Part shown: in pieces, positions 9,395-47,935 of the stretch
How the letters are laid out: every line of letters begins with the position of its first letter
Numbering within the stretch: position 1 is the stretch's first letter
NCBI GenBank assembly: GCA_020241125.1
Contig: GCA_020241125.1_4708.1
Origin: a phage
DNA: 64,000 nucleotides
Reading direction: 5' to 3' (one strand)
Program-made: the position numbers and the translations under genes
Notes under the pieces: generated by a model
Database searches by the model: none
Seen by the model: only the letters and a program-made list of their open reading frames with translations
Told to the model about the DNA's origin: nothing

Positions 9395-9467
9395 TTTAAT
9401 CTCCTCTCCCGACTTCAGAGAATTCTTAAAATCCGTTAGTTTTGATAGATAGGGTAAGACGGCATAA

Positions 9468-9490
9468 AAGCATCCCATTACGGGATGCTT
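9468..9490 (-). terminator. hairpin (AAGCATCCC/GGGATGCTT) with UUUUAUGCCG tail in minus sense
   Basis: Inverted repeat directly after stop of 9502..10050. Confidence 0.5.
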
Positions 9491-9501
9491 CATTAATCAG
9501 C

Positions 9502-17471: not shown

Positions 17472-18029
17472 TTACTCCATCCATACTTCTTCGTCGTAAT
17501 GATTTTCTATCGCATTACGCCAAAAACGTACGGTGTCCAAACTAATCGGTGCGTAAAAATGTTGGTCAACGCCGACGTTAAGTCCGTTGGCCTTCGCTAA
17601 CATACAACGATGAATATGCCCGAATAGATTAAAGTAGCCTGGGTTTCTTTCGCTGGGTTTATGGCATAGCCAGTAGGATTCGTCATTGCTAATCGGCAAC
17701 ACCAACGGATGTTCATAAACAGCAGCAAACCCCATACCGAGCAGTTTATCACGCCACGCTTCGAAGCTTAATCCTGTCGCTTTGTATGCGTCTTCGTCCC
17801 AATTCCCCATTACCAATTGAACCTGGATATCAGAACGAATGGCTTCCACGAACTCGAACTTACCCCAATCACCTAAATGCCATAACACACTGTTCTTTGG
17901 AAGATTGTTGATGGCTTTCAGCATATGCTGGTTCATATCGGCGACGCTTGCGAACGGACGGCGTGAATACGTCCATGTACGCTCGCTATCAAAATGGGTA
18001 TCCGACATAAAGAAGATGGGTGGGGTCAT
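17472..18029 (-). CDS. calcineurin-like metallophosphoesterase (185 aa)
   Basis: Ordered motifs FMSDTH (D-x-H), GDWG (GD), GNWD (GNH[DE]-like), GHIH (GHxH). Confidence 0.6.
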   Translation of the reverse strand: MTPPIFFMSDTHFDSERTWTYSRRPFASVADMNQHMLKAINNLPKNSVLWHLGDWGKFEFVEAIRSDIQVQLVMGNWDEDAYKATGLSFEAWRDKLLGMGFAAVYEHPLVLPISNDESYWLCHKPSERNPGYFNLFGHIHRCMLAKANGLNVGVDQHFYAPISLDTVRFWRNAIENHYDEEVWME

Positions 18030-18508
18030 TGATCTAATTGCTCCAGAAATGCACGACCCGATTTACTTGCTTTTAAATGCTGTTCTGCGGAAGTAAGCAG
18101 AAGATCGGTTGGCGTGTATGCAGCGCTACCTTTCCACTCTGTTTTCAGTTTACCCTCTTCGATACTGAACTGAATCAGTTGTTGGGTACCGAAGTTAAGC
18201 GTGTTCGTCGCGGCGCTAAATACGCCACCCATCATGCTGTAACCAAAGACTTTCACGTTTTCCGTGTAGAAGTCATTGTCGATCAATTTGTTCTGGAGCT
18301 CGAGTTGGTCGGACGGCAGCAATCCTCCGTCAAAGACACTTAAAATACCAGCCAGGCGATACATACTCACCTTTCCTGAAACGCCCACCACGTAATTGCC
18401 GTACAGTGTTTCTTCCAGTTTAGCAACAACGGTGCGATCGTCGGAGGTTTTCATCGAAACCTCAATACCATCACCAACTTCTGTTAACGTTAAATCAACG
18501 ATACTCAT
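18026..18508 (-). CDS. hypothetical protein (160 aa)
   Basis: ORF track. Confidence 0.5.
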   Translation of the reverse strand: MSIVDLTLTEVGDGIEVSMKTSDDRTVVAKLEETLYGNYVVGVSGKVSMYRLAGILSVFDGGLLPSDQLELQNKLIDNDFYTENVKVFGYSMMGGVFSAATNTLNFGTQQLIQFSIEEGKLKTEWKGSAAYTPTDLLLTSAEQHLKASKSGRAFLEQLDQ

Positions 18509-18530
18509 TCATTATTCTCCGCTTTCATGT

Positions 18531-19217
18531 TTAACACATGATTTCACCATGTTTCTTTTCAACATACGTATAAACATCATCCAAATAAGCAATGAGTTTA
18601 TCACGATCCGCACAGAGCGATTTAATCATCGCAATCTCTTTCATATAAAGCTGCTGACCTAACGCCGGATAGGTAATCCAAGCGTAGCCGTCAGGCGCAA
18701 ATTTAGAAATAAGATAATCGGCGGTTTCCTGTAATGCGAACTCTTTGCTCATCTGGCCGTAACGATGTTCGATTGCACGGATACCAAAACGTTCGCTATC
18801 GAGACGGCCCATATCCGCCAGACGAAGCACTTGAGAGGCAACCGAACTACGTGGACCAGAATACGAGGCACGATGTTCAGCAATAAGTACGCGTATCTCC
18901 TCGATGTCTTCCGGTGTGAAAATATGCTGCTCGTTACGAAGCAGGATAACCGATGCACGAATACCCCCGATAAGGTGGTGGTATGTTCTGTTTTCGTGGC
19001 AAGCGATATCATGCATAAATGCAGCGGTTAATAGACGACGACGTTCCGTGGGTCTGATGATCCCAACCACATCAGCAAGTTCATTTGCCAGTTCAACAAC
19101 GGCAAGCACATGTTCTTCTTGATGTGCAAGATCGTTCTTCCGAATATTTTCAATTACTTCAGCGCGAGTTTCCCGAGATAAGAAATTTAAACAATCCAAC
19201 GAATATAAAGATTTCAT
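18531..19217 (-). CDS. hypothetical protein (228 aa), possible HD-motif hydrolase
   Basis: AAFMHDIACHENRTYHH contains an HD dyad (weak); AAAGAGG RBS; promoter-like motif 40 nt upstream. Confidence 0.5.
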   Translation of the reverse strand: MKSLYSLDCLNFLSRETRAEVIENIRKNDLAHQEEHVLAVVELANELADVVGIIRPTERRRLLTAAFMHDIACHENRTYHHLIGGIRASVILLRNEQHIFTPEDIEEIRVLIAEHRASYSGPRSSVASQVLRLADMGRLDSERFGIRAIEHRYGQMSKEFALQETADYLISKFAPDGYAWITYPALGQQLYMKEIAMIKSLCADRDKLIAYLDDVYTYVEKKHGEIMC

Positions 19218-19262
19218 TGCACGTACCTCTTTGAATCTATTAATAAATTTTCTTTACTCACG

Positions 19263-19282
19263 TAAGTAATATAGCCGTGAAA
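19263..19282 (-). promoter_or_regulatory. conserved promoter-like motif, copy 1 (minus sense TTTCACGGCTATATTACTTA)
   Basis: One of four near-identical copies; TATATTAC core ~40 nt upstream of ATG at 19217. Confidence 0.5.
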
Positions 19283-19361
19283 GGATTTGTGTTGGTCCGT
19301 TTCGATACCCATCGTATTTTATGGATTGTCGAATGACGTCATTTTAAGGGACATCCCCGGC

Positions 19362-19395
19362 CTCCTCCCCAGGAAAGGTGTGGGGAGGAGTTTTT
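19362..19395 (+). terminator. plus-oriented terminator-like hairpin (CTCCTCCCC/GGGGAGGAG + TTTTT) in a divergent intergenic region
   Basis: 9-bp stem followed by T5, ~30 nt upstream of the SNF2 ATG; function unclear. Confidence 0.35.
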
Positions 19396-19425
19396 ATCAT
19401 ACATTCTATTAAATCGAGCGCGATT

Positions 19426-21507
19426 ATGTTGGATAGAATCAATCGTTTAATGAACCGAATAGCGGTTAAAAATCAGAGTAACAATACCGTGCATATCGGG
19501 GGTATCGATGCCTGGCGTCTTTCAGATGACATTCAGCGAATATGGGGTACCTCCCGATTTATGAAACACATGTTTCGTAATTTCTCTTCCAGTGGTCTCA
19601 GTCTCCACAACTTTTACCTTCCCGATTTCGTTTATATTCTCGAAACGATCATCGAGGCAAAGAATACTCGCAGTAATAAACGCATGCTGAAACACCTTAT
19701 TGAGGTACTGCTGCAGGAAACCTGGTTGCAAAATACCACAATCGAGCAACCTGCAATCCTCGATAAAGCACGCATGAACAAAATGCTAACGCTCTCCCTG
19801 TTCGATTATCAAGATGAGTTTATCGACATCTATAACCGTAACGTACCTAAATATCGACTGAAAGGATACGTGTGTGCGATGGGTGCGGGTGCCGGTAAAA
19901 CAATCACCGCGTTGGCTTTAAGCGCCGCAATGAACGTCGACGTATTTGTGGTCTGCTGTCCTAAGAACACCATGCGTTCAGCATGGCAATCCGATGTAAA
20001 CAAAGCCATCGTTGACCCCGCAACAGAAACCGCATTCTGGTCAGATACAATGCCACCGTCACAGCTGCAGAAAAGCGATAAGTATTATTTTCTGCATTAC
20101 GAGTCGATGGGTTTATTAAACGATGTAATGATCAAGCATAAACGCACCGCGAAGCGCGTGTTGATCGTGGTTGATGAAAGCCATAACTTCAACGACAAGA
20201 ACAGCCAACGTTCCCAACGACTGGTTGATCTCGTACAGACGATGCGTCAGACCATGAATGCGGATGTGCATGTCTTGTTTATGTCGGGTACGCCCGTTAA
20301 ACAGATGGGTTCTGAGATGATCCCCTGTTTAGGTTGTATTGACCCGATGTTCCAAGGACAGGTGGTCGATAGCTTCAAAGCAATTTACGGTTTAACCAGC
20401 AGCCGCGCTAACGATATCCTCAGACATCGTCTTGGGTTCATGATGCATGTTGTACCTAAAGAGGCTTATCGTAAAACCCGGCCGGAAGTTCAGGACGTTT
20501 ACGTGAAGCTCCCTAACGGTAGCGATTATACCATCTCGAGTATCCGCGACGACATGGCGATATTCGTACGCGATCGGGCGAAGTATTACAAGGATAACTG
20601 GGGGCATTACAGAAAGATTTTTGATGACGCCTTGGACTACTATCGTAAGACTATTCGTACCGATGGTGAACGTAAAGAGCTATCTCGATACGAATCGATT
20701 GTTGCTCGTTTCCAGAAAGGTTACGACCCCGTCAGAGACAAAGAAGATGCGATGTTCTGCAACGCGTTTGAAAAACGTTCTATTATGCCGGTTCTTCCTT
20801 CTGATTTAAGGGTTGCTTTCAAAGACGCCAAGAGCGTCATCAAGTACGTTGGGTTGAAAATTCAGGGTGAAGCGTTGGCGCGTGTTCTAGGTGCAGCCCG
20901 CATTCGGTGTCATGTCGACATGGTGGAGTACATCGACTTCGAAGGGTACATCAATAACGCTGAAGCCAAGGTGTTGATCTTCACGTCGTACGTTCAGGTG
21001 GTTGAGCGTGTCGACAACATGCTTCGCGATGCCGGTTTCTTACCGGAACCCATTTACGGGAAGACCAACAAGAACATCAACCAGATACTTGCTCGCTTAC
21101 GCGATGATCCTGACAGCGGTCCCGCTATCGCAACATTTGATAGCTTAGCCGAAGGGGTTCCGATGTTGATGTGTAACGTGGGTCTCTTCTTGAACAACCC
21201 ATGGCGTTCATCCGATGAAATCCAAGCCATCAGCCGTCTCGATCGTGTAGGGCAAACGCAACCTGTTCGGATTTATCGTTTCATGTTAGATACAGGAAGC
21301 GAGGGTAACGTTTCTACACGTAGCCACGAAATCATGGAGTTAAGTCGACAGCTTGTTGAAGAAATCACAGGCGTCAAATACGTGGTGAACAAGCAAGATG
21401 CTGTTAACTTGCAGGAAACGTTGGCGATGGAAGGATACGATCAATACGTTACCGTAAACACCACGGAATACGATATTAAACCACGACCTGCGTTCTTGGA
21501 ATGGTGA
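19426..21507 (+). CDS. SNF2-family helicase/ATPase
   Basis: GAGAGKT (Walker A), VVDESHNF (DExH), SGTPV (motif III), QAISRLDRVGQTQPVRIYRF (SNF2 motif VI). Start placed at first ATG; the track ORF starts at an upstream GTG inside the hairpin. Confidence 0.75.
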   Translation: MLDRINRLMNRIAVKNQSNNTVHIGGIDAWRLSDDIQRIWGTSRFMKHMFRNFSSSGLSLHNFYLPDFVYILETIIEAKNTRSNKRMLKHLIEVLLQETWLQNTTIEQPAILDKARMNKMLTLSLFDYQDEFIDIYNRNVPKYRLKGYVCAMGAGAGKTITALALSAAMNVDVFVVCCPKNTMRSAWQSDVNKAIVDPATETAFWSDTMPPSQLQKSDKYYFLHYESMGLLNDVMIKHKRTAKRVLIVVDESHNFNDKNSQRSQRLVDLVQTMRQTMNADVHVLFMSGTPVKQMGSEMIPCLGCIDPMFQGQVVDSFKAIYGLTSSRANDILRHRLGFMMHVVPKEAYRKTRPEVQDVYVKLPNGSDYTISSIRDDMAIFVRDRAKYYKDNWGHYRKIFDDALDYYRKTIRTDGERKELSRYESIVARFQKGYDPVRDKEDAMFCNAFEKRSIMPVLPSDLRVAFKDAKSVIKYVGLKIQGEALARVLGAARIRCHVDMVEYIDFEGYINNAEAKVLIFTSYVQVVERVDNMLRDAGFLPEPIYGKTNKNINQILARLRDDPDSGPAIATFDSLAEGVPMLMCNVGLFLNNPWRSSDEIQAISRLDRVGQTQPVRIYRFMLDTGSEGNVSTRSHEIMELSRQLVEEITGVKYVVNKQDAVNLQETLAMEGYDQYVTVNTTEYDIKPRPAFLEW

Positions 21508-21513
21508 TTAAGA

Positions 21514-21552
21514 AGCTCTGCCTGATGTCAGGCAGAGCTTTATGCTGTATTT
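21514..21552 (+). terminator. intrinsic terminator (12-bp perfect stem AGCTCTGCCTGA/TCAGGCAGAGCT + TTATGCTGTATTTG)
   Basis: Directly after SNF2 stop. Confidence 0.7.
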
Positions 21553-21607
21553 GTTGCAAGATCGTATGACGTATATGCGTCGTAATTATTAAAATAGGGC
21601 AAAATAC

Positions 21608-23062
21608 ATGAAACTCAAACAAAGCTGGAAAGACGAACTTCTCGCGTTAGTAAACAGCAAAAACAGTTTACAACTGACATTAGACGATGTAAAATTTGAA
21701 CTAACGGCACCGGTAAGCGAAGTGCCTGGAACGGTCGTTGTTACAATCAAACCGAACGATAATAGTCGCTACTTTAACGAGCAGTCTCTGACCTACATCC
21801 GTCGAGACATCGCTAAAAACTTCACCGGGATCCCGTTACGGGTTATCGTTAAGCAAGATACCGCTGTAAGGGATATCATCAATACGATTGCTGAACGTTA
21901 CGGATTGGTATTTGACACAGCCGTCGACTTCCTCGAATCCGAGCTGAATAAACAAATTACGTTCGCAGACACCGGTATTAAAGACATTACGGTTCCGGTT
22001 GCAAACACGTCTTATGTTTGGGCGGGTAATCTTCAGTTCAATATTGCTAACGATACGTTAAGCTTGATTACTATCATCAAGAAAACCGATCTTACGAATC
22101 TGGTTTATCTGGATGGTGTTGAAGCTGACACATCTGGTTCGTTACTATTAGCAACCGCAGCACTTGTTAACGAACACGTAAATGAACCGATGGTTGAAAA
22201 CGAAGATATCGTTAATGAATTTATTAACGTTCTTAATACTCTAGCCAAATATGGTGACATAACCGGCGATGAATTAGATGCCGCCTTACAAGCGTACGAT
22301 GAAGCAGAAAACAGGAATAAAACCACGGTAATAACTCTTGGTGATATCCAGTGTGTTGCAACAGAAAAAGACGATTGGGAAATTGGACGTTTACGCGGTC
22401 AGATGGTTCTCGCGCTCAAATCCGATAAATACCCGGAGCCCGATAACACGTTCAGGTTGTTTACGAATGGTGGTGACGTATCGCTAACGTTAAACACAAT
22501 GAAAGATATAAGTATCGATTGGGGTGATGGGAATAAAGTAACGTTGGATGCTGAAGAAAGATACGCGCACCACACATACGCCGACAATAACCAGTACCAA
22601 ATCGAAATTGTGTCTCGTACGGACCCAGATGTGCTGCGACCAAATTATATTTCTGGGAGTGAGATAACCGAAGTAATTCACTGGGCTACTACTTCAACAA
22701 TAGCTCTGAATTTTGTTGGATGCGATAATTTAGCGACTGTTCCAGATGAGATCCCAACTTCGTGGACAACGTTGGACAGCATGTTTGAAAGTTGTACGAA
22801 TTTGAATGATCCGTCTATCTCTAACTGGAATACAAGTAACATCACATCAATGAATGGTATGTTCGGCGGATGCACTAAATTTAACCAACCTTTAGCTGCC
22901 TGGGATGTCAGCTCAGTAACTGACATTGGTGGTATGTTTAACGGATGCAACAGTTTTAACCAAGATTTAAGTGGGTGGCGATTACCGTCAGGAGTAACCC
23001 ACGACAATTACGATAGTGGTGCTTTCTCGTGGCAGACGGAACATAAACCGACGTTCCAGTAA
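21608..23062 (+). CDS. protein with C-terminal DUF285/BspA-type leucine-rich repeats (484 aa)
   Basis: C-terminal repeats NFVGCDNLATVPDEIPTSWTTLDSMFESCTNLNDPSISNWNTSNITSMNGMFGGCTKFNQPLAAWDVSSVTDIGGMFNGCNSFNQDLSGW match the FxxCxxF-NQDIS-xWDVSxVTxMxxMF pattern. Confidence 0.7.
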   Translation: MKLKQSWKDELLALVNSKNSLQLTLDDVKFELTAPVSEVPGTVVVTIKPNDNSRYFNEQSLTYIRRDIAKNFTGIPLRVIVKQDTAVRDIINTIAERYGLVFDTAVDFLESELNKQITFADTGIKDITVPVANTSYVWAGNLQFNIANDTLSLITIIKKTDLTNLVYLDGVEADTSGSLLLATAALVNEHVNEPMVENEDIVNEFINVLNTLAKYGDITGDELDAALQAYDEAENRNKTTVITLGDIQCVATEKDDWEIGRLRGQMVLALKSDKYPEPDNTFRLFTNGGDVSLTLNTMKDISIDWGDGNKVTLDAEERYAHHTYADNNQYQIEIVSRTDPDVLRPNYISGSEITEVIHWATTSTIALNFVGCDNLATVPDEIPTSWTTLDSMFESCTNLNDPSISNWNTSNITSMNGMFGGCTKFNQPLAAWDVSSVTDIGGMFNGCNSFNQDLSGWRLPSGVTHDNYDSGAFSWQTEHKPTFQ

Positions 23063-23083
23063 AAAAAAAAATAGTTAGCATAT

Positions 23084-23122
23084 CTTCCTCCCTACCCATA
23101 ACGGGCGGGGAGGAAGGTTTTA
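23084..23122 (+). terminator. intrinsic terminator (CTTCCTCCC/GGGGAGGAAG + GTTTTATGG)
   Basis: Follows stop and an A11 run at 23061-23071. Confidence 0.65.
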
Positions 23123-23134
23123 TGGCGTTATGAC

Positions 23135-23473
23135 TTAGAACCAGAGTTCTTTCATGAAGTAGGCTTCCGTATCGTAGATAAGCCACCCATCGGGGATTTC
23201 TAAAGGATCGTCTTCGGTTAAGGTGAGCATGTGCAGGGCGAACGCACGCTTAATATCTTCCAACAGCTTATCATCACCGTAACCTTCGGGTAGTTTACGG
23301 TCAGCCAGCTGAGTTTGTTTATAGACATCGCGGAACGCTTCAGGATTATGTTTATCCATCGGGAATTGTTCAGCAGCCTGAACCATCGAAAGCGTCCAGC
23401 TTACAACATTGTAACGCTCACCGTTAATTTCACTGAACTGATCATCGATTAAACAGATTTGTTGTATATTCAT
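23135..23473 (-). CDS. hypothetical protein (112 aa)
   Basis: ORF track. Confidence 0.5.
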   Translation of the reverse strand: MNIQQICLIDDQFSEINGERYNVVSWTLSMVQAAEQFPMDKHNPEAFRDVYKQTQLADRKLPEGYGDDKLLEDIKRAFALHMLTLTEDDPLEIPDGWLIYDTEAYFMKELWF

Positions 23474-24363
23474 TCATTTTCTCCATTCTTATCTTGGTCG
23501 CAATCACACTCTTCGACGTCTTTCTTACTTAAACGTAAGACACCGAGTGCGGCATGCTTGAGTTCTTGCAACGCGCTTTTCAGCTGACCTTCTTCATCGA
23601 AATCAAAATACTTCTCGTTGTAGCTTAATGCTGGAATCATATTTACGAGAGGCTCGATGGCAGGCATCAACATTTCGATGACGACCTTAGGATCAACAAA
23701 GCGATCGAACCCTTCAGGAAGTTTGCTCGCTACAACCTTATCGTTCTTGATGAAGAATTTGTTCTTGAACAAATCGTCAAGAATAGCGTTCTCTTCATCC
23801 GTACGTTTTGCGTGGGGACGATCGATCATCTGAACGAAAACACCACTCAACGCTTCAGGCAAAGTCGGATTTTCACGAAGAGAAGTTCCAGCCGGAATTT
23901 CAATATCGATCTTTGCCCACTCAACAACCTGGTGATCTCGTGTGTAGATAACGTCTACTTCCCACGCCAGGCCGTCCGGACTTTCCACGGTGTAACGTGT
24001 TTTCGCTTGACCTTCCGGAGCCATACGCTCAATGGCATCAAACATCTCGACTGGAATTTCTACCTCGCTTTCCGTTGCATCACCTGGACCACGATACACC
24101 TTCGTGGTCATGATGTATTTCGGTTCTTCGTTATCGATCTGTATAGCTCGTGCTCGTACTTGACCTTTCACACCACCAACGGCCGTGTTATCAAACAACC
24201 ATTGATGTTGCACCATATGTTCAATTTTTGATGCTACTTGACGAAGACGTTCAACACCATCCTCAGCCAGTTTGCCAAAGAAGACCAACTCACGTTCCTG
24301 CTGTGTCTCACCACTTAACATCATTAAATTGGCGATTTGTTTCACGCCTCTTACTTTTGACAT
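23470..24363 (-). CDS. hypothetical protein (297 aa)
   Basis: ORF track. Confidence 0.55.
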   Translation of the reverse strand: MSKVRGVKQIANLMMLSGETQQERELVFFGKLAEDGVERLRQVASKIEHMVQHQWLFDNTAVGGVKGQVRARAIQIDNEEPKYIMTTKVYRGPGDATESEVEIPVEMFDAIERMAPEGQAKTRYTVESPDGLAWEVDVIYTRDHQVVEWAKIDIEIPAGTSLRENPTLPEALSGVFVQMIDRPHAKRTDEENAILDDLFKNKFFIKNDKVVASKLPEGFDRFVDPKVVIEMLMPAIEPLVNMIPALSYNEKYFDFDEEGQLKSALQELKHAALGVLRLSKKDVEECDCDQDKNGENE

Positions 24364-24431: not shown

Positions 24432-26006
24432 TTACAATTCAAAATCTTCATCGATAACGCGCTGGGTAAGCACTTTGTCGCTGAAGAACTCCACCTTGCG
24501 CTGATGGTATTTACGATGTGCTTCTATCGAAGTACATACCAGATACCAGAACGTTGGTGTCATTCCTTCAAACTTCCCTTTCAGCTGACGTAGCCGTCCC
24601 AACACCTGAATGTTACCGGTTCGTGACCCCATCGCTAACGTCATGAACGTCATCACCAAGTCAGGAAGGTCGATGCCCGTACCTGCCGATTTCACGGTTG
24701 TAACGCTAATATCGTTATCCAACAAGACCATGAAATCTTCTTCAGCAGTATAAGGACCAATCTCTAACTCAGGAATACGTTCACTGAGATAATGCGACAA
24801 CGACTTACACATATCGACGGTTGCACAATACACCAGCATCTTCATACCTTCCTGATACTGGTTCATGAAACCTTTGATTATAACGGTATAGATGAAGTTA
24901 AAGTACGCGAGTTTGAGTTGCTTGTTCTTCATGATAGACTGTTCGAATATCGTGTGAGAATAAGAACCCCCAAAGCCTTTGTATCTGACTTTATCTGTAC
25001 TGCGTAGTCGATACGTCACGGCATTTACCGCAATGTATTTCTTGTATTCGCATTTCGCATAACGTGCTTCTTTCGGATACATCAAATACAACATCCGCTC
25101 GATGAACGGATCGTCGGACACCGCCGTTGCTGACAGATAGATGATTTCCGGAATATTCGCGTAGCACTTCACTTTGAACAAGAAATGCAAAGCTTCGTGA
25201 CATTCGTCATGGATTAACAACCCAATGCCTGTTTTCTCCCAGAACTCGACTGGATGGAAAACATACGGTGCGACACAGTTGTTCTTTTCATAATCGGTTA
25301 TGTATCTCTGAAACATGTTCAGTGAGAATAACGCAATTTTGAAATCCAGCTCACCTTGTTCCACCAACATCTGGAATTCCAGCATGCTGTAACGAGGAAT
25401 GTCGGGATGCGGTGGGTCAGATTGGGCTGTACCGCGTATCTCGATAACATCACCTGGTTCCATACCGAAGAAACTTAGCAACGAGCTGCGCCATCCAGGC
25501 ATGTATCTCGGTGACAGAATAATGCCCGTCCGTACACCACGTCGGAAAGTGATCTCCTGCGACATGGCTGTTTTACCACTGCCCGTGCCTGCGGTGTTTA
25601 GGCTCATTCTGAAGGGGGTATCCTTACCCCCGTCCATGTACTCCAACCATTCTTGCTGATCTTGACGCCATGGAAACTTCCATTTCTTTACGAACTCCAC
25701 TTCTTTACCTGGTACCGGATCGTGATAGACGATTTCCAACCACTCTTTTCGTATCCCTCGAGAAAAGATAAAATCCAAAAACGATTTCAACTGTTCACGG
25801 AGTAAGTATACCTCGCTATAATCGCTTCTTGCCGCGGCATACGTGTTTATGGTATCGGTAACCATTCTCCGTGTACGAGGATCGCGTCGTTTCCTCAGAT
25901 GCAAACAACGGTCTCGAAGGTAATGGCCGATAAGATGGGCAAATCGAAGTCCGTATCCGCTCAGCCTCATGCCGTGCGAGAAGACGTCGATACGAGCTAA
26001 CTTCAT
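24432..26006 (-). CDS. superfamily-2 DExH-box helicase (524 aa)
   Basis: NTAGTGSGKT (Walker A), LLIHDECHE (DExH), LSATAV (SAT), TVKSAGTGIDLPD (motif V), QVLGRLRQ (motif VI). Confidence 0.75.
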   Translation of the reverse strand: MKLARIDVFSHGMRLSGYGLRFAHLIGHYLRDRCLHLRKRRDPRTRRMVTDTINTYAAARSDYSEVYLLREQLKSFLDFIFSRGIRKEWLEIVYHDPVPGKEVEFVKKWKFPWRQDQQEWLEYMDGGKDTPFRMSLNTAGTGSGKTAMSQEITFRRGVRTGIILSPRYMPGWRSSLLSFFGMEPGDVIEIRGTAQSDPPHPDIPRYSMLEFQMLVEQGELDFKIALFSLNMFQRYITDYEKNNCVAPYVFHPVEFWEKTGIGLLIHDECHEALHFLFKVKCYANIPEIIYLSATAVSDDPFIERMLYLMYPKEARYAKCEYKKYIAVNAVTYRLRSTDKVRYKGFGGSYSHTIFEQSIMKNKQLKLAYFNFIYTVIIKGFMNQYQEGMKMLVYCATVDMCKSLSHYLSERIPELEIGPYTAEEDFMVLLDNDISVTTVKSAGTGIDLPDLVMTFMTLAMGSRTGNIQVLGRLRQLKGKFEGMTPTFWYLVCTSIEAHRKYHQRKVEFFSDKVLTQRVIDEDFEL

Positions 26007-28009: not shown

Positions 28010-28154
28010 TATTGCTTTCCGATTTAAATGGTTTTATCATACGGTTTACCAAATCCGTTGGACTTTACTATCGTTGTGATAGCATCGGGAATCCCTTCCC
28101 TTAGGTTATGTAGGTGTTAATATATCTCCACTGCTGACCTTTATGTCGGCAGCA

Positions 28155-30074: not shown

Positions 30075-32243
30075 TTAGCTTTCACAGTCATCTGCGTCGA
30101 TGATTTGTCCGCCAGCAACGTTCAGTTGATGATACAGAATCCTCAACGCACGGTTACCGCCAATGGGATACTTCTCGAAGTTGGTCGCAATAGGAATCGC
30201 TGATGGCTTATCGGTCGCATAGATACTCTCAGTGATGCTATCCACCTGTTTTGGATTGTTCGCATAGTCCATAAAGACGCTCGCGAACCATCCGCCAGCA
30301 AAGGCGGTAACTTCACGATGTTCAGATTCACCGCAGTAACGAGTCGGTTGCTCTTTACCAGGAGAACTGTATTTATCGCTATTACTGAGTTTCGACGGTA
30401 ATCCATGCGCTTGCAGTTTAGGGATGCCCACCGCTGACCAGTCGTTCGCCGTCTTCTCCAACATCATGATGTACGTGTCACCGATCGCAATATCGTTCTT
30501 GGTTGTCCGCCATTGCCCAGAACGTCCACGATACCGTACAGGACCTTTCTTCAACGGGAACTCACGAATCAGATTCTCCATACGTTCTGAACCTGCTGCG
30601 ATACTGTCCGTCGGGATATAAACTTCCGTACCATGGCGTTGTACGTACCGTAAATGATCCCATTTATCCTCATCCGTGATACAGTATTTTTCAACAACCT
30701 GTTCCACGAATTCAGGACTGACGATATAGTAGTAGCGCATCAGTGTGTTCCAAGCGGTCTCCAGATCGCCTGCATCCATCACCGGTTTCAGTTCACGCAT
30801 GATCTGATCACCAACACCGTTGATGTACGGTGCGTTAACACGACTTAAACTCATCCTTTTGATTACCGTACTATCGTCGAACATGAAGTCCGCAACGTTA
30901 CCCCATTGGTCGACCGGCATTTCATCGTCTTCCATGATGTCGGTTACGACGAATTTATCACCCGCCATACCGGTGAATTTAAACCCGATACCTGGAACAA
31001 CGTCGTACGTGTATGTGATGGTCACACGCCAATCATCGAGATTCTCTTTACGGTAATCGCGGGTCGGTAACACATGACGTAGCTGTCCGTTAGGATTGCG
31101 GATATCAATACCGTGTTCAGCATCAGCCAGGTTCAACCACCACATCACCGTTTGATGATGACGTATCGGCGTACCAACGCGTTCACGTTCGTACTTACGA
31201 ACAGCATCCTGAATTCGGGTGTAAAGCAAACCAATCGCGTTCTCGTATTTCAGGAATTGACGATACGGAGGACGCATCTTCTCTTCCATCATAATCGCAC
31301 GCTCGCGGGCTTGACGTCCAGAACGACGATGTCGGTCGCTGACAACATCGATATCCGTTACACGCGCATTCGGTTCCGCGTAAGTGAGATCATCGTAAAC
31401 ATAATCCACACGCTGAAGGTTACACGTCATCATGTCAACAACGCTGAGGATAGGATCGATTTCGCGTGTTGCTGCAAGTAACCCATCCTTACGAATACGC
31501 TCACCGTTCTCGGGTATTGCTTGATATACCTCATCATCACCGTAGAGATTGATTGGGTATCGTGATTTACCTGATGTGATCGTCCGCTTCTCAATGCCGG
31601 TACTGGTGAAATGCTTCAATACACCACGACGGGCAACACCACCATCCTCGATACACTGATAGAAGCTACCGAAACACACTTTGCAATCGCGACCGTAACC
31701 CCACTCGCGCGTTTCTTGATTGATCGCTGGACTTTCCATCAAACGAGAATATCGCGGTACGATCTGGCCTCGACGAAGGGAATGGAACAAGTTGGTTGGT
31801 CGAAAACGGAAACCGTACTGCTGATGCATGATGTGATGCTCGGGCACTTCAAGCAAGCGTAGCTCGTGACGGTTACCATCCTCTTGGTTTTCATACAGCA
31901 CGTAATGCATCGTGTTTGTTTTGATGCTGTTTGCTGTATGCCCAGGTTGGAAACGTGGGATGATATCTATGATGCGAGATTCAACTGGAAACTCTACTGA
32001 CCAAGTGTTCTGTCCGTACTGGTATTCAATCCCCGTCGTTAGTCGGGACGGTTTCGCATCTTTGATAACCAACGCTTGGCTAAGATGTCCACCAAACATC
32101 GCAGCGCGCTGTGCTGAGTTATAATGCAATAGCCCGTTAAGTCCAGTCCCTACGCCAGTATACTCCTGTTTAATGGGAATGATTTTACCTTCAGCGATTG
32201 CCTGCTTCACAGATTCATAAAGAGGTTTTTCTTTATAATGCAT
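30075..32243 (-). CDS. multisubunit RNA polymerase beta-like subunit, C-terminal module (~722 aa)
   Basis: Ordered matches to bacterial beta: NSAQRAAMFGG (cf NMQRQAVP), YGQNTWSVEF (cf GQNMRVAFMPW), MAGDKFVVTDIMEDDEMPV (cf GDKMAGRHGNKG...EDMPY), GESEHREVTAFAGG (cf GEMEVWALEAYGA). Start moved to internal ATG (MHYKEKP) with AGGAAG RBS. Confidence 0.6.
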   Translation of the reverse strand: MHYKEKPLYESVKQAIAEGKIIPIKQEYTGVGTGLNGLLHYNSAQRAAMFGGHLSQALVIKDAKPSRLTTGIEYQYGQNTWSVEFPVESRIIDIIPRFQPGHTANSIKTNTMHYVLYENQEDGNRHELRLLEVPEHHIMHQQYGFRFRPTNLFHSLRRGQIVPRYSRLMESPAINQETREWGYGRDCKVCFGSFYQCIEDGGVARRGVLKHFTSTGIEKRTITSGKSRYPINLYGDDEVYQAIPENGERIRKDGLLAATREIDPILSVVDMMTCNLQRVDYVYDDLTYAEPNARVTDIDVVSDRHRRSGRQARERAIMMEEKMRPPYRQFLKYENAIGLLYTRIQDAVRKYERERVGTPIRHHQTVMWWLNLADAEHGIDIRNPNGQLRHVLPTRDYRKENLDDWRVTITYTYDVVPGIGFKFTGMAGDKFVVTDIMEDDEMPVDQWGNVADFMFDDSTVIKRMSLSRVNAPYINGVGDQIMRELKPVMDAGDLETAWNTLMRYYYIVSPEFVEQVVEKYCITDEDKWDHLRYVQRHGTEVYIPTDSIAAGSERMENLIREFPLKKGPVRYRGRSGQWRTTKNDIAIGDTYIMMLEKTANDWSAVGIPKLQAHGLPSKLSNSDKYSSPGKEQPTRYCGESEHREVTAFAGGWFASVFMDYANNPKQVDSITESIYATDKPSAIPIATNFEKYPIGGNRALRILYHQLNVAGGQIIDADDCES

Positions 32244-32274
32244 AGGACTTCCTATTATCGAATTGAGGTACGTC

Positions 32275-32628
32275 ATGTCTAACACGCCCCTGAACGACTT
32301 TCTTAAGACAAACCCCGATGACCTCATCCACGATCTTGATTTCAGGAACGTTGTTGAGATGCATCTGGAATATTTCAAAAATGCCGGACTGGTCTCTACG
32401 ATAGACATACCACCCGAACGCGCCTACGAATTCGATGGTAACTTTTATGGATTGTGTCGTGTTCTGCTTGGCGAGGGCAGTGAACCAATGCACTGGATAA
32501 CCATGAGACTCAATGGTTATCGTGACCCTACGGAATACACCGCCGATGTTCTAACCATGAAGATTGTCGATACAAGCGCAATCAACACATTAAAACAACA
32601 GTACCGCACAATCCACTACAGCGCTTAA
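32275..32628 (+). CDS. hypothetical protein (117 aa)
   Basis: Plus-strand ORF with GAGGT RBS and a terminator right after its stop. Confidence 0.45.
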   Translation: MSNTPLNDFLKTNPDDLIHDLDFRNVVEMHLEYFKNAGLVSTIDIPPERAYEFDGNFYGLCRVLLGEGSEPMHWITMRLNGYRDPTEYTADVLTMKIVDTSAINTLKQQYRTIHYSA

Positions 32629-35617: not shown

Positions 35618-37204
35618 TTATTTTTTTCCTCTTAAATTTACTACGTGTTCATTTAATCGAACAACTAATTGCACAAGCTGCTGACGGATATCTGCTGGAC
35701 AAAGCATCAATCCTTTACGGTCAGCTGGGACTTTCTCAAGGATTTCCGGGCCTGCTGCTGAAACATCCCAGTCCCATTCACAAAACGCATCGGCCACCAT
35801 GTTAATACCGACAACCGGTAAAGTTGTACGTTCATCTTCATACATGGCGTGTGGATACAATTTATTGACAGTAATGATCTCCTGTGGTTTTAATTGGTGG
35901 ATAATCTGATAAACATCGTCGCGTTTGACCTGGATACCTACGGTCAGCGCGGCCAGTTGAGGAAAACCCCAATGGTCTAACAAACAAGCTGCGATCGCTA
36001 ACGCTTTTGCCTGATGCACGGCTTCAATCGGTGCCAGACTTCTCGCCGGAAGATGGCTATCAAGCAACCATTGCGCCAGTGCTCGGCATCCGCGGTTAAT
36101 TGGTTTTAACTCAACGGTGTCATCGTGTTTAGCGTACGTGTATCCGTCGTAACGTTTTGCGATACGCGCATACATGTCTTCAACTTTACCGTAAGGTGCC
36201 GTTTCGTCGACGTCGTGCAACACACGTTCCATCTGGGTAAGATACGCAATGTCGAGAATGAGTACACGTGGTGAACGTTTATCTTTCACCATCAACGCAT
36301 CAATCACGCCTTGACTGTCTTCATCTTGCGCATTCCCTCGCGGCGTTTTCTCGCGAATCGGTCCGCTGAAACGTCGTTCCGTACAAAGGTTATTCACATA
36401 GCTGAAGATCAGTGTTACTAGATGCGTACAACTCACTAACACCCCATCTTTAACGACAGGCTGTACAGCTTGGTCCAAGTCGCGTACGGCGAGACGGCGG
36501 ACGATGGCTTGTGAACGCAACCAGCCGGGCACTTTCTCCGTCGACATGTAATCCACGGTCATCGACAGCGTGATCTTTTTATCACCCGTCTGTGCGCGGA
36601 TATAGTCTTCCAGTCGGTCGTAAGCGGCGATATCATGAATGCGTGTTTTATACATCAACGACATAGCCACTTCTTCTTTACGAACCGTTCCGTACGTTTT
36701 CCCTGCGTCAATCAGAAACTCTGCCCAAATCGGCACCATCAGACGGACGTAGATCGCTAACGCCGTTAACTCAACGTAATCATTTCGTAAATAGGTTTTC
36801 TCAGGTATGTCATCCTCACCTAATGTTGTTTTCATGTCCGGTGGTAATTTTACCCAACCTGGGGTATTACACAATGCCAGAATCTCTTCGTACACAACCG
36901 GTTTGTAAATTTCACCAACAGCGCGACTCAACTCCTCCATTTGTTGTTGTGGAGCAATGTAGTTATCCATCGCTTCACGTGCTTTAACGAACCCTTCGAA
37001 GATGTCGTCAATTCGACGTGGGTTCTTTTGTTCTATCCAGGCGAGATACTTGTTAATCTCCCGCATCTGATTGCTAGCCATATCCCCATCAATCTTGATG
37101 TAACCCTGACCTGAAAATTCCACAGTACGTCCATCACGGTGTTTGATGAGATAGTGATCCAGCTTTTCTTTTCCTTGCGTCGTAATGACGGGCACTATGT
37201 GCAT
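35618..37204 (-). CDS. hypothetical protein (~528 aa; start at internal ATG with AAGAGG RBS)
   Basis: Track ORF extends to 37339, but the promoter-like motif and RBS support the ATG at 37204 (MHIVPVITTQ). Confidence 0.55.
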   Translation of the reverse strand: MHIVPVITTQGKEKLDHYLIKHRDGRTVEFSGQGYIKIDGDMASNQMREINKYLAWIEQKNPRRIDDIFEGFVKAREAMDNYIAPQQQMEELSRAVGEIYKPVVYEEILALCNTPGWVKLPPDMKTTLGEDDIPEKTYLRNDYVELTALAIYVRLMVPIWAEFLIDAGKTYGTVRKEEVAMSLMYKTRIHDIAAYDRLEDYIRAQTGDKKITLSMTVDYMSTEKVPGWLRSQAIVRRLAVRDLDQAVQPVVKDGVLVSCTHLVTLIFSYVNNLCTERRFSGPIREKTPRGNAQDEDSQGVIDALMVKDKRSPRVLILDIAYLTQMERVLHDVDETAPYGKVEDMYARIAKRYDGYTYAKHDDTVELKPINRGCRALAQWLLDSHLPARSLAPIEAVHQAKALAIAACLLDHWGFPQLAALTVGIQVKRDDVYQIIHQLKPQEIITVNKLYPHAMYEDERTTLPVVGINMVADAFCEWDWDVSAAGPEILEKVPADRKGLMLCPADIRQQLVQLVVRLNEHVVNLRGKK

Positions 37205-37257
37205 AACAACCTCTTTTCGCGGTTCCCTGTTAAAACGTCTTCTGTGACGTCTACCAC

Positions 37258-37280
37258 AAAGGTAATATAAGCGTGAATAA
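37258..37280 (-). promoter_or_regulatory. conserved promoter-like motif, copy 2 (minus sense TTATTCACGCTTATATTACCTTT)
   Basis: TATATTAC core ~58 nt upstream of ATG 37204. Confidence 0.5.
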
Positions 37281-37408
37281 TTTTGGATTCCGGCTGAGTT
37301 ATCGCTCAGCATGCAAGGCATCCCGCCGAAGCGAGACACCTTGCACTAACGGAAAATATTCGCGTTACCTTCTGAATCGAGGACTCAGAATGCGATGCTA
37401 AAGCATGA

Positions 37409-38200: not shown

Positions 38201-38273
38201 TTTCAGCCTCGTTACGTAGTGTGAATCAATTTCTGGTTCAGATGATAGTCAATATTAGTTAAAAATTACAGCC

Positions 38274-39071: not shown

Positions 39072-39090
39072 ACCCCACAACTCCTTCTTA

Positions 39091-41403: not shown

Positions 41404-41416
41404 GAGGAACTCCTCT

Positions 41417-41866: not shown

Positions 41867-41985
41867 TCCGTTCTCCTCAAGCTTTTTCATTTCATAGAGT
41901 GGTGGAAATTCGTAGAAAGTTACAAAAATAAAAAAGAATGGGCAGCCCCTCCCCACCCGAAGGTAGGGAGAGACCGCAAATATAC

Positions 41986-42450
41986 TTAAACCAAAGCTGC
42001 GATAACGTCGTTAACATTACGGCCTCGCAACTCTGCCGCTAAACGAATAACTTCATCCAGGGAACGGTTTGTACGAATCTTGGCCACTTTCCAATTTTCA
42101 GGATACTGTTCGAAGTTAAGCAACCAAGTCATTACCTTTGCTTGTTCCATACCGTTGAGTTTGATTGTCGTGCGCGGATTGGCTTTGAACCACTTCTTGC
42201 TCAGCTGCGCCATACGGCGAACAGGGTAAGCGTAAGCGCGAGTCCAGTCTTTGGACAGATTGTCGAGTAATTCACAGTAGCTGTTGTCGTAGTCTTTGTT
42301 GATACGACGTAATAACCAGTTGGCGGTCATCTGATAAAGTTTATCATCTTCACGTAACCGCATACCCGCTACTGCTAAATAAATGATAAGACCTGCGCCC
42401 AGGATGAGAGACAGGATAAACAGAATTTGGGTTTCTTGTGCTAAAGTCAT
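41986..42450 (-). CDS. predicted membrane protein (154 aa, N-terminal TM segment)
   Basis: MTLAQETQILFILSLILGAGLIIYLAVAGMRL; GAGGA RBS; promoter-like motif upstream. Confidence 0.55.
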   Translation of the reverse strand: MTLAQETQILFILSLILGAGLIIYLAVAGMRLREDDKLYQMTANWLLRRINKDYDNSYCELLDNLSKDWTRAYAYPVRRMAQLSKKWFKANPRTTIKLNGMEQAKVMTWLLNFEQYPENWKVAKIRTNRSLDEVIRLAAELRGRNVNDVIAALV

Positions 42451-42540
42451 TTTACTATCCTCGGATTTCGTTAGGATTTAATTTCCAATATAAGGGCAAT
42501 GTGATATGCCTTATACAGTCGATTGATGTTGTACATCACT

Positions 42541-44346: not shown

Positions 44347-44696
44347 CACATATCTTCAGTATGAATCGCTACTTCATACCCGCAGCATTACCTGCAGCTC
44401 CTGGTGTTACCAGGACGGAGAGATCATCTCATCACCCACGAAGGGTGTTCCGCGCTACCCTCAGCGAATTCGAGGGACATGATCGTTGAACCTTCCACCG
44501 ATAATCGGTGGCTAGGCTGCTGATTAAACATTGTACGTTGGGGTGGCATCCTGGTTCAGGACTGTCGTTGAAGCCTCCCAACATCCACTCACTTATTTCC
44601 GCCTTATCGGCTCCCATAAGGGCAGAGTGGCTTTAGCCCGTCTCAGCAATTCACGGAATTCAAGCTCTTCCTTTCAGAAGGCAGGGCCTCATCTGA
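44347..44696 (-). other. putative self-splicing intron (group I-like, 350 nt, no ORF) interrupting the beta' gene
   Basis: Exon 1 frame ends ...KGYNA and exon 2 starts DFDGD, restoring the YNADFDGD motif; 5' exon ends in U and insert ends in G; insert carries GGUUCAACGAUCAUGUC and AAGAUAU near its 3' end (resembling group I R and S elements) and several stem-loops (CCUGGUAACACCAGG). Confidence 0.55.
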
Positions 44697-45947
44697 AGCA
44701 TTGTATCCCTTAAGGATCATCACGCTTAACCCGATGGTATTATCCTGCGGATCGCGTTTAACCTTGGTGATTTCAAGACATTGGTTACTGCTTCGGTCAA
44801 GTGATGGGTTTCGAACAAAACCGCACACAATCCCATCGAACGGTGTATCAGCAATAAGCTCATCGTGCAGCTCACTCATCATCGGATGATAATTACGGAC
44901 ATGTTCCGCAACGAACGCACGTGCTGCTCTCGGTGAATAACCACGATGGAATAACTTGGATTGGATATGTTCTTTATTGGTTAAAGTAAATGGTGCGTAT
45001 GGGAAATGCAGATGATAATAACGATGGTTCGCTGTTATCGAACTGATTACAGTACGCGTGGTGAATGGATGTAATGTACCTAATATGTTTTTACGTGTGA
45101 TACCTTTCTTCTTACCGATGAACTCATCGAAAATCGCCGCATGGTATTGCAGTAGCTTCAATTGCACTTTCGCCATCCAGTTTTCTTTCTTTCTGGCGCT
45201 CAAAGGTGTTGTTGGGTGATAGATACTATTCAACGTACCGATAGCATCGATCGCACCTTCCATTTTGCTATCCGCATAACGACCGGTTGGCGTATTCTCG
45301 ATAACGAACATCATGGCCGCAGGAAAGCTGATATACTGACTGAAGAACTTATCACGATGGATACGGATGAATTCTCGTAGCGTATCAACTTTCTCCGTGT
45401 TCTTCGGTCCGCGTAACGTCGGTCCTTTATACAAGATCTCCATGATGCGATCGAAGTTCTGTATAAAACTATTTACACCGCGACGTATCCCGAATACATC
45501 GAATTGCTGCTCCAGATAGTTCTTGAGTTCGATGGGTCGTTTTACATTTGGACGGTAACTGGCATCAATGAGCCACGTCATCGTTTCAAAGCTTTTGATA
45601 TTCAACTCGCTTGCCAGCACGAGATGGACCAACGGGTTAATGAACGCATCAATTCCTTCAGGAACACGCGCCCAAACCGTCGAACGAATCTCTTGTTCTG
45701 CTGGATAGGTTACAACCGTTTTACAGTTCGGACACACCGTGCCGAGCAGCTCACCACGATTGTAGAAACCACAACCACATTGTGGCGTGATATCCAACGT
45801 ATCGCTGGAGTAAACACGGGTGATAAAACTGTTTAATTTCTTCTTCTCTTCGACGACTTTTGTATCGTAATCATTCAACAAAATCGGCGTGAAAGGAAGT
45901 TCTGCGAGCTGTCTATCGAAACTCACGATATCGAGCATGATGGCCAT
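44697..45947 (-). CDS. RNA polymerase beta'-like N-terminal subunit, exon 1 (417 aa to the GYNA junction)
   Basis: N-terminal zinc finger CGCGFYNRGELLGTVCPNCKTVV (cf beta' CxC...CxxC); TAGGAG RBS; unspliced frame continues 17 codons to a stop. Confidence 0.65.
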
Positions 45948-46039: not shown

Positions 46040-47935
46040 TTAGAACAGGTTGAATGCCCCACCCATGTTGTTAACGCCAACATTCGGACGATCGCTACGT
46101 GCGTAGATGTTACCGGAGATGTTACCCAGACCACGAGCACGTGCTGCCATGTTACCACGAACAGCGGTACCTGCCAGATGCTGGATGTTCTCAGGACGGA
46201 TGGTGAAGCCAGCATCAGCAGCGGCCTCGATCAGCGCCTGCAGTGCTAACGGATCGAAGTCGTAACGCATTGCCCAGCCGGTTTGTTCCCAGCTACCAGA
46301 CAGAACACGATCAATGATTTCGTGACGAGCGACAACACGCTGAGACATCGTCATATCGGTACGGTCGAAGCTGTCTTCCCAAGCTTCTACGGTATCCGGG
46401 TTAGTGATGTTCATCATGTACAGATCGTCCATATCACGAATATCGTGACGGTGACCATCCTGGTGGTTATAATGACCCAGCGGGATACGGTTACCGGTAG
46501 CGTAGACCAGTGGTGCGCCGTACTGATATTTCTTGCTGAAGCAACCCAGGGTAGTATCATCGAAGGCACGGAAGAGTGCTTTGTAACCTTCGGAGATTTC
46601 CCGGACTTCACCTTCAACTTTGCCCGTATAGATCTTCTCAGCCGCCGGGATCATACGCAGCAGCCAGCTGTATTCGCCTTCTTCCGGTACGTCGATAGAA
46701 ATCAGCAGAGACGGATACAGTACCTGTTGCAGGAACTTGTAAATCTGCTCGTTGGTTTGAGTAGACAGATCCAGCGGTGCGGTAACTTCCGGATCCAGTA
46801 CCATCGCCAGAGCACCCGGGTTATGCGGACCAATACCACGAGCAGCGTTGCTGATTAAAGACTGTGCCCACGCCATACCGCTGTTCAGCGTAGCGATGGT
46901 GCCAATCAGACCCAACACGAAAGTGTTCGGCGTGAACGCATCCAGCTCCAGCGGGTAAGCGCTGGTCATCACGTAACGCGGTTGGTATTGTACAGTCGGC
47001 GGTACCGGATAACCGTTAACCAGAACAGGGCCTTGGTTGAAGGTCGGGTTCTGCGGGCTGTAGGTCAGGTCAATGTAACCGGTGGTTGCGACCAGACGCT
47101 GCTGACTATCGTAATCGCTCATCGCTTGACGGATGCGGTTAGAGATAGTTACAGTGATGTCAGAACGCACAGGGTTACCAACAATATCGCTGTCCTGCAT
47201 ACCGCTGGTGTTGTACTGAACGCTGCTGATTGGCTGATCGCTTGCCATCATGCCCAGGTTGAACTGCGGCAGACCCAGTTTATCGCCGAGACGGATTTCG
47301 ATCGCGGTTTGGATTGCGTTATCTGCAGCAGACAGCAGGGTGGTTGCCAGATGCGCAGATTCAGCGGTGATTTCATTGGTCACCACAGCCAGACCAGCGA
47401 TACGAGCAGTACCATTAGACTTACCACCGATAGCTGCATACATTGCCGCCATGACTTCGTTGATGAACGTACCGTTCAGGTTATCAACCCAGGTACGCGG
47501 CACCAGAATGTTACCATGCGGGCCTTGTTCTTCACGACGCGGCAGCGGAGCCAAACCGGCAACCAGTGGAAGCACATAACCGAAGAAGTGGTTATGGTCA
47601 CCAACTTTTGCACCGCTCATAACAACCAGGGTCGGATACGGTACACTGTATTGGTTAGGATCGACGGTCACCATGATGAAGTCGTCTTTGAATCCTTTAT
47701 CTTCCAGTTCTTTTTCCATCAGACGACGGAGATTCAGTACCTGCTCGGAGCCAGTATTACGGCTAATACGACGGCTCAGTGTACGGTTGATCGTACGCAT
47801 CGTATGAGTTACTTTAGGCTGGCCAGCAAAATCTGCAGCGGTTTCCAGCGCCTCATCAGCACGTTGTGCGGTGCGGGTTTCAGCTGCACGAATTTCTACA
47901 TTATCGTTACCGTTATTACGTACGTCTAAGCCCAT
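46040..47935 (-). CDS. chmA: candidate chimallin / phage-nucleus shell protein (631 aa); major capsid protein not excluded
   Basis: Large ORF with strongly optimal codon usage, AAGAGGAA RBS, promoter-like motif 70 nt upstream, directly upstream of the beta'-N gene (order as recalled for phiKZ gp54-gp55), ~8 kb from PhuZ. No motif confirmation possible by eye. Confidence 0.45.
   Translation of the reverse strand: MGLDVRNNGNDNVEIRAAETRTAQRADEALETAADFAGQPKVTHTMRTINRTLSRRISRNTGSEQVLNLRRLMEKELEDKGFKDDFIMVTVDPNQYSVPYPTLVVMSGAKVGDHNHFFGYVLPLVAGLAPLPRREEQGPHGNILVPRTWVDNLNGTFINEVMAAMYAAIGGKSNGTARIAGLAVVTNEITAESAHLATTLLSAADNAIQTAIEIRLGDKLGLPQFNLGMMASDQPISSVQYNTSGMQDSDIVGNPVRSDITVTISNRIRQAMSDYDSQQRLVATTGYIDLTYSPQNPTFNQGPVLVNGYPVPPTVQYQPRYVMTSAYPLELDAFTPNTFVLGLIGTIATLNSGMAWAQSLISNAARGIGPHNPGALAMVLDPEVTAPLDLSTQTNEQIYKFLQQVLYPSLLISIDVPEEGEYSWLLRMIPAAEKIYTGKVEGEVREISEGYKALFRAFDDTTLGCFSKKYQYGAPLVYATGNRIPLGHYNHQDGHRHDIRDMDDLYMMNITNPDTVEAWEDSFDRTDMTMSQRVVARHEIIDRVLSGSWEQTGWAMRYDFDPLALQALIEAAADAGFTIRPENIQHLAGTAVRGNMAARARGLGNISGNIYARSDRPNVGVNNMGGAFNLF

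Follow-up and report, generated by a model that had tools for sequence, protein, structure and literature searches.

Four minus-strand intergenic elements of a Goslar-like jumbo phage as probable early promoters of the chimallivirus class

Four similar AT-rich elements, each a short way upstream of a gene, recur along a 64,000-nucleotide stretch of phage DNA (contig GCA_020241125.1_4708.1; the whole stretch is hereafter the window), and raise the question of what they do and, if they start transcription, which RNA polymerase reads them. A preliminary description, made from the letters alone, had placed them at 19263-19282, 37258-37280, 42541-42560 and 48005-48024 and had likened them to the early promoters of phiKZ-like phages. 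The elements are present at these coordinates, all on the minus strand, and we consider it highly probable that they are early promoters of the chimallivirus (phiKZ-like) class. Taken together, the comparisons set out below indicate that they very probably act as start signals from which the phage's own injected RNA polymerase would transcribe its first genes.

The closest relative of the window is Escherichia phage vB_EcoM_Goslar (MK327938.1, genus Goslarvirus), from which the window is nonetheless distinct. Positions 18000-24000 align to Goslar at 96% identity over 85% of their length, a stringency that no other deposited phage reaches, and blastn of the whole window against the assembled Goslar genome returns five collinear blocks of 93.5-97.8% identity. 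Judged by this similarity, the window derives from a Goslar-like chimallivirus, that is, a nucleus-forming jumbo phage of the Chimalliviridae. Members of this family carry two multisubunit polymerases, one packaged in the virion (vRNAP) and one not (nvRNAP) (PMC7598289). All five of the five vRNAP subunits have been detected in Goslar virions by mass spectrometry (preprint 10.64898/2026.04.21.720040), and genes for nvRNAP subunits were found by phmmer inside the window. Positions 5545-5940 of the window, which contain a 132-aa open reading frame (ORF; 5546-5944) with no significant Pfam match, are absent from Goslar, as are positions 8510-9404, with a 327-aa ORF (8510-9493; DUF7448, E 1.4e-23) beside a thymidylate synthase gene. 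A 484-aa protein encoded at 21608-23062 on the plus strand joins an N-terminal DUF7941 to a C-terminal DUF285 (BspA-like repeat), and the divergent part, 22156-23029, corresponding to its C-terminal half, is the sole replaced, non-alignable segment of the window relative to Goslar. The filament cloud of the Goslar virion is reported to be made of DUF7941 proteins and has been proposed to aid host encounter; as far as the sequence goes, the C-terminal replacement may be a swap of a host-range module.

Aligned with the Goslar copies, the elements extend over about 43 nt and share a single layout: TAAT/TATTG, an A-rich tract, TTTCA(C/G)GG, one variable base, the core TATATTAC, yTAn and GTGA. The core is invariant at all four window sites, for which the consensus reads TTTCAsGGyTATATTACyTAnGTG. 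The near-identity first noted among the four copies is exact over a 20-mer at three sites and looser at site 2, where the 20-mer carries three mismatches (ATTCACGCTTATATTACCTT). The suggested resemblance to phiKZ-like early promoters is borne out beyond the core: the elements contain the phiKZ core, match the early-promoter motif of phage 201phi2-1 over the full 24 nt and are related to those of phages OBP and N1M2. Coordinates, strands and scores under the profile described below are as follows.

19254..19296, minus strand: site 1, candidate early-promoter element; core 19266-19273, GTG 19259-19261, predicted start ~19259; 34.7 bits
37250..37292, minus strand: site 2, candidate early-promoter element; core 37262-37269, predicted start ~37255; 34.1 bits
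42532..42574, minus strand: site 3, candidate early-promoter element; core 42544-42551, predicted start ~42537; 42.5 bits
47996..48038, minus strand: site 4, candidate early-promoter element (chimallin); core 48008-48015, predicted start ~48001; 39.4 bits

Site 1 sits in the divergent gap between an HD hydrolase gene (minus strand) and a helicase gene (plus strand). Site 2, the most divergent copy (ATTCACGCTTATATTACCTTTGTGG), lies between the homologues of ChmC (Goslar gp176) and PHIKZ068, and site 3, which agrees best with the consensus, overlaps the last 5 nt of the upstream ORF 42570-43406. The divergent gap of site 1 also holds, at ~19361-19390 before the helicase start, a 10-bp CTCCTCCCC/GGGGAGGAG hairpin with a T-run on the plus strand only. 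It resembles the phiKZ terminator motif CCYCCCC...GGGRRGG (PMC10914365) and is annotated in Goslar as a plus-strand terminator, for which a position upstream of the helicase start is an odd place.

The element class is discrete, and four is its complete count for the window. Specifically, a search of the window for the 20-mer with up to three mismatches yields four matches, these sites alone, against 0.05 expected from shuffled sequences. The sequence-only profile R1 was built from eight distinct copies; in an unfiltered scan of the window it gives the four sites 34.1-42.5 bits and its next match 8.6 bits. A position weight matrix gives the four sites 45-59 versus ~10 or less elsewhere; no additional copy in the window emerged from either scan. 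The bare 8-mer TATATTAC is not enriched in the window (four occurrences, all on the minus strand, versus 2.9 expected; 32 of 100 shuffles reach four). Since its frequency is at chance level, the signal resides in the shared flanks and the placement, not in the core count.

Two weak look-alikes, intergenic and co-oriented with the following gene, occur on the minus strand at 28093-28135 and 62657-62699 (score ~9-10), without the upstream half and the TTTCA block. They have in common TGGAGAT...A(A/C)ACCTACATWACCT, with a core resembling that of phage EL. The first is upstream of a 668-aa gene (26003-28009); the annotation of gp165, its orthologue in Goslar, notes a weak similarity to an RNA polymerase beta subunit. 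The second is upstream of the gene at 62086-62637. They could be weak early promoters or represent a different promoter class, which two cases are too few to define.

Placement is uniform: all four window sites are intergenic and oriented as the next gene. Goslar, with a genome of 237 kb, has ten copies of TATATTAC, every one of them on the minus strand; eight are intergenic with full flanks, and the two within coding sequences (gp003 and gp235) are without them. Profile matching adds four Goslar sites with the core TACATTAC (record positions ~15068, 43267, 49733 and 86706), located upstream of gp021, gp040, gp046 (the weakest match of the four) and gp075. The resulting 12 sites are all on the minus strand, each upstream of a co-oriented minus-strand gene, in a genome that is ~92% coding. 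When annotation tables were compared with profile matches, 11 of the 12 fell in annotated intergenic gaps; the twelfth, one of the four with the core TACATTAC, is inside the 62-codon ORF Goslar_00047, which may be a spurious gene call. Equal abundance in coding regions, which the preliminary description had raised as a point against promoters, is thus not what the genomes display (coding overlap at none of the four window sites and at one of the 12 Goslar sites). Among the 2.9 million contigs of IMG/VR, the strict Goslar-type 24-mer is confined to three Goslar-like genomes.

From the first base of the core to the ATG, the distances at sites 1-4 are 56, 65, 101 and 80 nt. An earlier estimate of 40-85 nt between element and start codon, counted here from coordinates as the interval between the 3' end of the 20-mer and the ATG, holds for sites 1, 2 and 4 (45, 53 and 69 nt), with site 3 slightly outside the range (90 nt). 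An AGGAG/GAGG-type ribosome-binding site is present at every ATG, as had been claimed. The start codon of 35618..37204, repositioned to 37204 in the preliminary description with the help of the motif, coincides with that of the annotated Goslar gp175 (528 aa) and allows an end-to-end alignment with PHIKZ068; a longest-ORF call would instead place site 2 within an ORF beginning at a GTG at 37339, unlike the Goslar gp175 annotation. The repositioning is thus correct.

Could the host read these sequences? Under this explanation, the E. coli RNA polymerase would use the elements as sigma-70 promoters whose -10 box is an extended TATATT; TATATT differs from TATAAT at one position, and site 4 has TTGAAA upstream. 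However, this TTGAAA is only 13 nt from TATATT, and the TTTCAsGG block abutting the core, the C at core position 8 and the downstream GTGA are not sigma-70 determinants. Furthermore, rifampicin is reported to be without effect on phiKZ-type infection. Host promoters are, in our judgement, an extremely improbable explanation. A sigma-70 scan with permissive settings, which asked for at least 9 of 12 matches and a spacer of 16-18 nt, accepted none of the four elements. Over longer stretches, sigma-70-like matches are fewer than in dinucleotide-preserving shuffles (12 versus 19.5 ± 4.5 in 36500-48500 and 1 versus 6.6 ± 2.3 in 17500-21000), a depletion consistent with a phage avoiding promoters for the host polymerase.

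Returning to phage promoters of the early class, the genes behind the sites are listed below, together with one terminator and one further hairpin.

46040..47935, minus strand: chmA, nuclear-shell protein chimallin, 631 aa (Pfam PF25677 Chimallin_Phikzvirus, E 2.7e-26); first gene behind site 4
44643..45947, minus strand: nvRNAP beta-prime N-terminal subunit, PHIKZ055 homologue (phmmer, PDB 7ogp_A, E 1.3e-60); second gene behind site 4
41986..42450, minus strand: 154-aa protein of unknown function, Goslar_00182 homologue, no Pfam match; sole gene between site 3 and the terminator
41942..41977, minus strand: intrinsic terminator, 16-bp stem, UUCG loop and U-run (RNA fold -31.3 kcal/mol, z -5.98)
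37313..37344, minus strand: 14-bp UUCG hairpin without a U-run, between the stop codon of the ChmC homologue and site 2 (-29.4 kcal/mol, z -5.84)
35618..37204, minus strand: PHIKZ068 homologue (phmmer, PDB 9rjs_B and 7ogp_B, E 5e-28, full length); first gene behind site 2
30075..32408, minus strand: nvRNAP beta subunit, PHIKZ071 homologue (phmmer, 7ogp_C, E 1e-85); in the same-strand run behind site 2
18531..19217, minus strand: HD-domain phosphohydrolase (Pfam PF01966, E 5.5e-8); first gene behind site 1

The chimallin of the window is 98.7% identical to the Goslar protein encoded at 171006-172898, and the order of chmA followed by nvRNAP beta-prime is common to phiKZ, PhiPA3, Eowyn, RAY and Noxifer. 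The alignment with PHIKZ068 runs from query residues 23-518 to chain residues 20-517 of 521; PHIKZ068 (gp68) is the fifth, sigma-like promoter-specificity subunit of the nvRNAP (PMC13282480). Goslar_00159, the counterpart of 18531..19217, is annotated as a putative HD superfamily hydrolase. A strong terminator (41942-41977) directly follows the 154-aa gene on its 3' side, and the hairpin at 37313..37344 is, from its predicted fold, a possible terminator or RNA-end structure.

The nvRNAP beta-prime gene is uninterrupted in the window (434 aa; junction near 44689/44698), and its Goslar orthologue, gp188, carries a 1,466-bp insertion (168195-169660), in which a group I intron is combined with an HNH/NUMOD1 homing endonuclease (gp186-187). 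The window phage and Goslar constitute an intron-minus/intron-plus pair of near-identical phages. In phiKZ, gp55 likewise has an HNH gene, gp56, behind it, and PHIKZ055 and PHIKZ056.1 are joined in the PDB entry.

The strongest support for the promoter reading is positional. Within the Goslar-like trio, the sequence upstream of chimallin is near-identical (one difference in 400 nt) and hence uninformative, so distant lineages were compared. The window and phiKZ share the order ChmA, beta-prime, ..., ChmC, gp68, gp69, gp70, gp71-73, gp74, helicase. The element of phiKZ gp54 (chimallin) is 80 nt upstream, a spacing identical to that of site 4, and the phiKZ element between gp67 (ChmC) and gp68 is the exact counterpart of site 2; copies are also present upstream of gp58.1 and gp76. 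Across the nine lineages examined, the element precedes chimallin in eight, namely Goslar-like, phiKZ, PhiPA3 (core TATATCAC), Eowyn, RAY, RSL2, Noxifer (TATATCAC) and Proteus phage 10, with the core 70-158 nt from the annotated start, and each copy scores far above a null of 300-nt windows taken from the same locus. In the ninth, Xanthomonas phage LucasX (upstream of LUCX_59), the upstream half GATTTAAAAACATTTCGAACC is kept and the core is CTTACTAT, not TATATTAC, a sequence pattern that suggests a lineage with a shifted core specificity of the polymerase. A profile trained on Goslar copies only places the foreign sites at the top of their loci (RAY, 23.5 bits, E 3e-6; phiKZ gp54, E 5e-5; phiKZ gp68, E 4e-4; Eowyn, E 2e-3; phiKZ gp58.1, E 5e-3; PhiPA3, E 1e-2). 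The chimallin proteins of these distant lineages match that of the window at only 21-31% identity. We lean slightly towards the view that the chimallin and gp68-like promoters are ancient positional orthologues throughout the Chimalliviridae, in which a non-coding element of ~30 nt (ATTnAAAAAnATTTnAnnnnTATATTAC) has outlasted this protein divergence in recognisable form and at near-constant spacing from its gene, and that the whole Goslar-type early programme runs from only about a dozen sites. If so, the promoter-recognition surface of the vRNAP would be among the most constrained features of the family, and the motif could offer both a portable early-expression cassette and a genome-only readout of the early gene set in any chimallivirus.

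The elements might instead be cis elements other than promoters, whether a regulator operator, an N4-type hairpin signal or a conserved RNA motif of the 5' leader. Any intergenic motif of 40 nt that recurs in this way might, in principle, be bound by a regulator, and in several copies the core is framed by a short inverted repeat, CAC on one side and GTG on the other. Inspection of the alignment, however, reveals that the CAC/GTG variation is uncompensated (CAG with GTG, GAG with CTG, CAC with ATG). The orientation of the element strictly follows the downstream gene, its distance to the start codon is on the scale of a 5' untranslated region, and the orthologous phiKZ element is just upstream of a mapped primary start site (PMC8244752). 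A non-promoter element is accordingly very unlikely in our view. Folding of site 3 with RNA energy parameters, as a probe for an N4-type hairpin or other structured element, gave -4.3 kcal/mol (z -0.51), and this candidate was rejected.

For promoters of the early class, a mechanism can be transferred from phiKZ and 201phi2-1, in which the injected vRNAP would recognise the element independently of the host sigma-70 polymerase. The core TATATTAC would occupy approximately -14 to -7, TTTCA(C/G)GG approximately -23 to -16, and the A-rich tract with TAAT/TATTG approximately -35 to -25. Transcription would begin 5-8 nt past the core, in or beside the conserved GTGA; with the 8-nt core centred at about -10, the start would fall on the last G of GTG. 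This register, which is taken from statements in publications (PMC7598289, PMC11512511), predicts minus-strand 5' ends at 19259, 37255, 42537 and 48001 (±2 nt) and 5' untranslated regions of 42, 51, 87 and 66 nt. Site 4 would drive chimallin and nvRNAP beta-prime, and site 3 a short unit for the 154-aa protein that would end at the terminator 41942-41977. Site 2 would drive the gp68-like specificity subunit of the nvRNAP together with downstream genes, among them, further down, another nvRNAP subunit, and site 1 the HD hydrolase and a long same-strand gene run. Because the genes behind the elements include chimallin and nvRNAP subunits, the first transcripts would go towards building both the nuclear shell and the second polymerase. 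The gene content of the window agrees with the phiKZ scheme, in which nvRNAP subunits are reported to be expressed from early promoters, and chimallin has been reported as early-expressed in chimalliviruses. Recognition of such motifs by the vRNAP is deduced in the literature too, where the wording is 'must define' (PMC7598289).

The reader of the elements might instead be the nvRNAP, which would make them middle or late promoters, or both polymerases might use them. In phiKZ, dRNA-seq of PHIKZ054 identified a primary start site carrying the early-promoter motif and a secondary one with a middle-type motif (PMC8244752), so that chimallin expression may not be confined to the early phase. Among the nvRNAP genes of 201phi2-1, some are without a nearby early promoter, and some have been assigned middle or late promoters (PMC11512511). 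The phiKZ middle motif (TACT at about -22 after an A-repeat) and late motif (TATG at the start), however, are unlike the element (PMC7598289, PMC8244752), which agrees with the early consensus over 24 nt. Moreover, nvRNAP genes, including that of the specificity subunit, would be caught in a circle if they depended on the nvRNAP only. We regard a middle or late role, or shared use, as unlikely, and early promoters read by the vRNAP remain our favoured explanation.

The literature searched yielded no description of Goslar promoters, and the Goslar GenBank record annotates terminators and not promoters. The elements represent a form, particular to this lineage and hitherto undescribed, of a promoter class that is well known; the mechanism itself is not new, and specialists would expect such a feature in this phage family. 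Of most interest as a by-product is the strong conservation, in position and in sequence, of the chimallin and gp68 promoters across the Chimalliviridae. Goslar is the E. coli model for nucleus-forming phages, and the early-promoter set (four sites in the window, 12 in Goslar) permits a prediction, from the genome, of the genes that would come to expression first in the early-infection vesicle: chimallin, the beta-prime and gp68-like subunits of the nvRNAP, the HD hydrolase run and several small proteins of unknown function. The set also gives exact predicted 5' ends, supports the start codon of the gp68 homologue and is useful for annotation, and the element is a ready-made candidate early-expression part for engineering Goslar-like phages.

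How, then, do the elements compare with known systems? Every jumbo phage that encodes these polymerases is reported to have motifs of this kind ahead of its presumed early operons, and where transcripts have been profiled, these motifs constitute the early-promoter consensus, with an AT-rich block centred at about -10 (PMC7598289, PMC11512511, PMC8244752, PMC10914365). Predicted early promoters have been given as TTAWTAVAA_HYWTTTRARR_BTATATTACDWHDGTG for 201phi2-1, as ...TTTCARRYAKATATTATYWAAGTG for OBP and N1M2, as WTTTYAAACCTACATTATY for EL and as TATATTAC for phiKZ (PMC7058600, Table 2). Closest in sequence are 201phi2-1, OBP and N1M2, which have in common with the window elements TTTnAnn, the core, a 4-nt spacer, GTG and an upstream A/T-rich block. 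The window consensus fits that of 201phi2-1 position by position, including the 4-nt spacer before GTG; by contrast, the core of OBP and N1M2 is ATATTAT, and the hosts of the three phages are Pseudomonas or Klebsiella rather than E. coli. In 201phi2-1, ONT-cappable-seq places the start sites ~10 bp downstream of the motif, whose conserved positions are at -10, -20 and -30 (PMC11512511). The -20 and -30 layout, likewise reported for phiKZ (PMC8244752) and 201phi2-1 (PMC11512511), has its counterpart in the alignments of the window copies, in which a T-rich block (TTTnA, within TTTCAsGG) at -20 and an A/T-rich one (the A-tract and TAAT/TATTG) at -30 are conserved.

With phiKZ, the elements share an identical 8-nt core, A-rich then T-rich upstream blocks, and an intergenic, co-oriented placement at the head of gene runs. 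They differ in that phiKZ copies have TTTGAGAT(T/C) upstream and TAAnnTG downstream, whereas the Goslar-type flanks are much more rigid (TTTCAsGG, yTAnGTGA). Early promoters in phiKZ number 28-32 sites (Ceyssens 2014, as cited in PMC8244752, PMC10914365 and PMC7598289), against about 12 in Goslar, where some sites outside the window use the core TACATTAC; some early transcription in Goslar may therefore use other signals. The core variant of phage EL, TACATTA(C/T), recurs at those four Goslar sites (gp021, gp040, gp046 and gp075) and in the two weak look-alikes of the window, and is used by none of the four window sites. Further afield, the polymerases of the T7 and N4 types are single-subunit, whereas those of the Chimalliviridae are of the split multisubunit beta/beta-prime kind, and the N4 vRNAP promoters are DNA hairpins, whereas the window element does not fold. 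N4 injects its polymerase with its DNA. Promoters of the T7 and N4 types are, like the window elements, phage-specific, long (~20-40 bp), highly conserved and dedicated to a phage-encoded polymerase.
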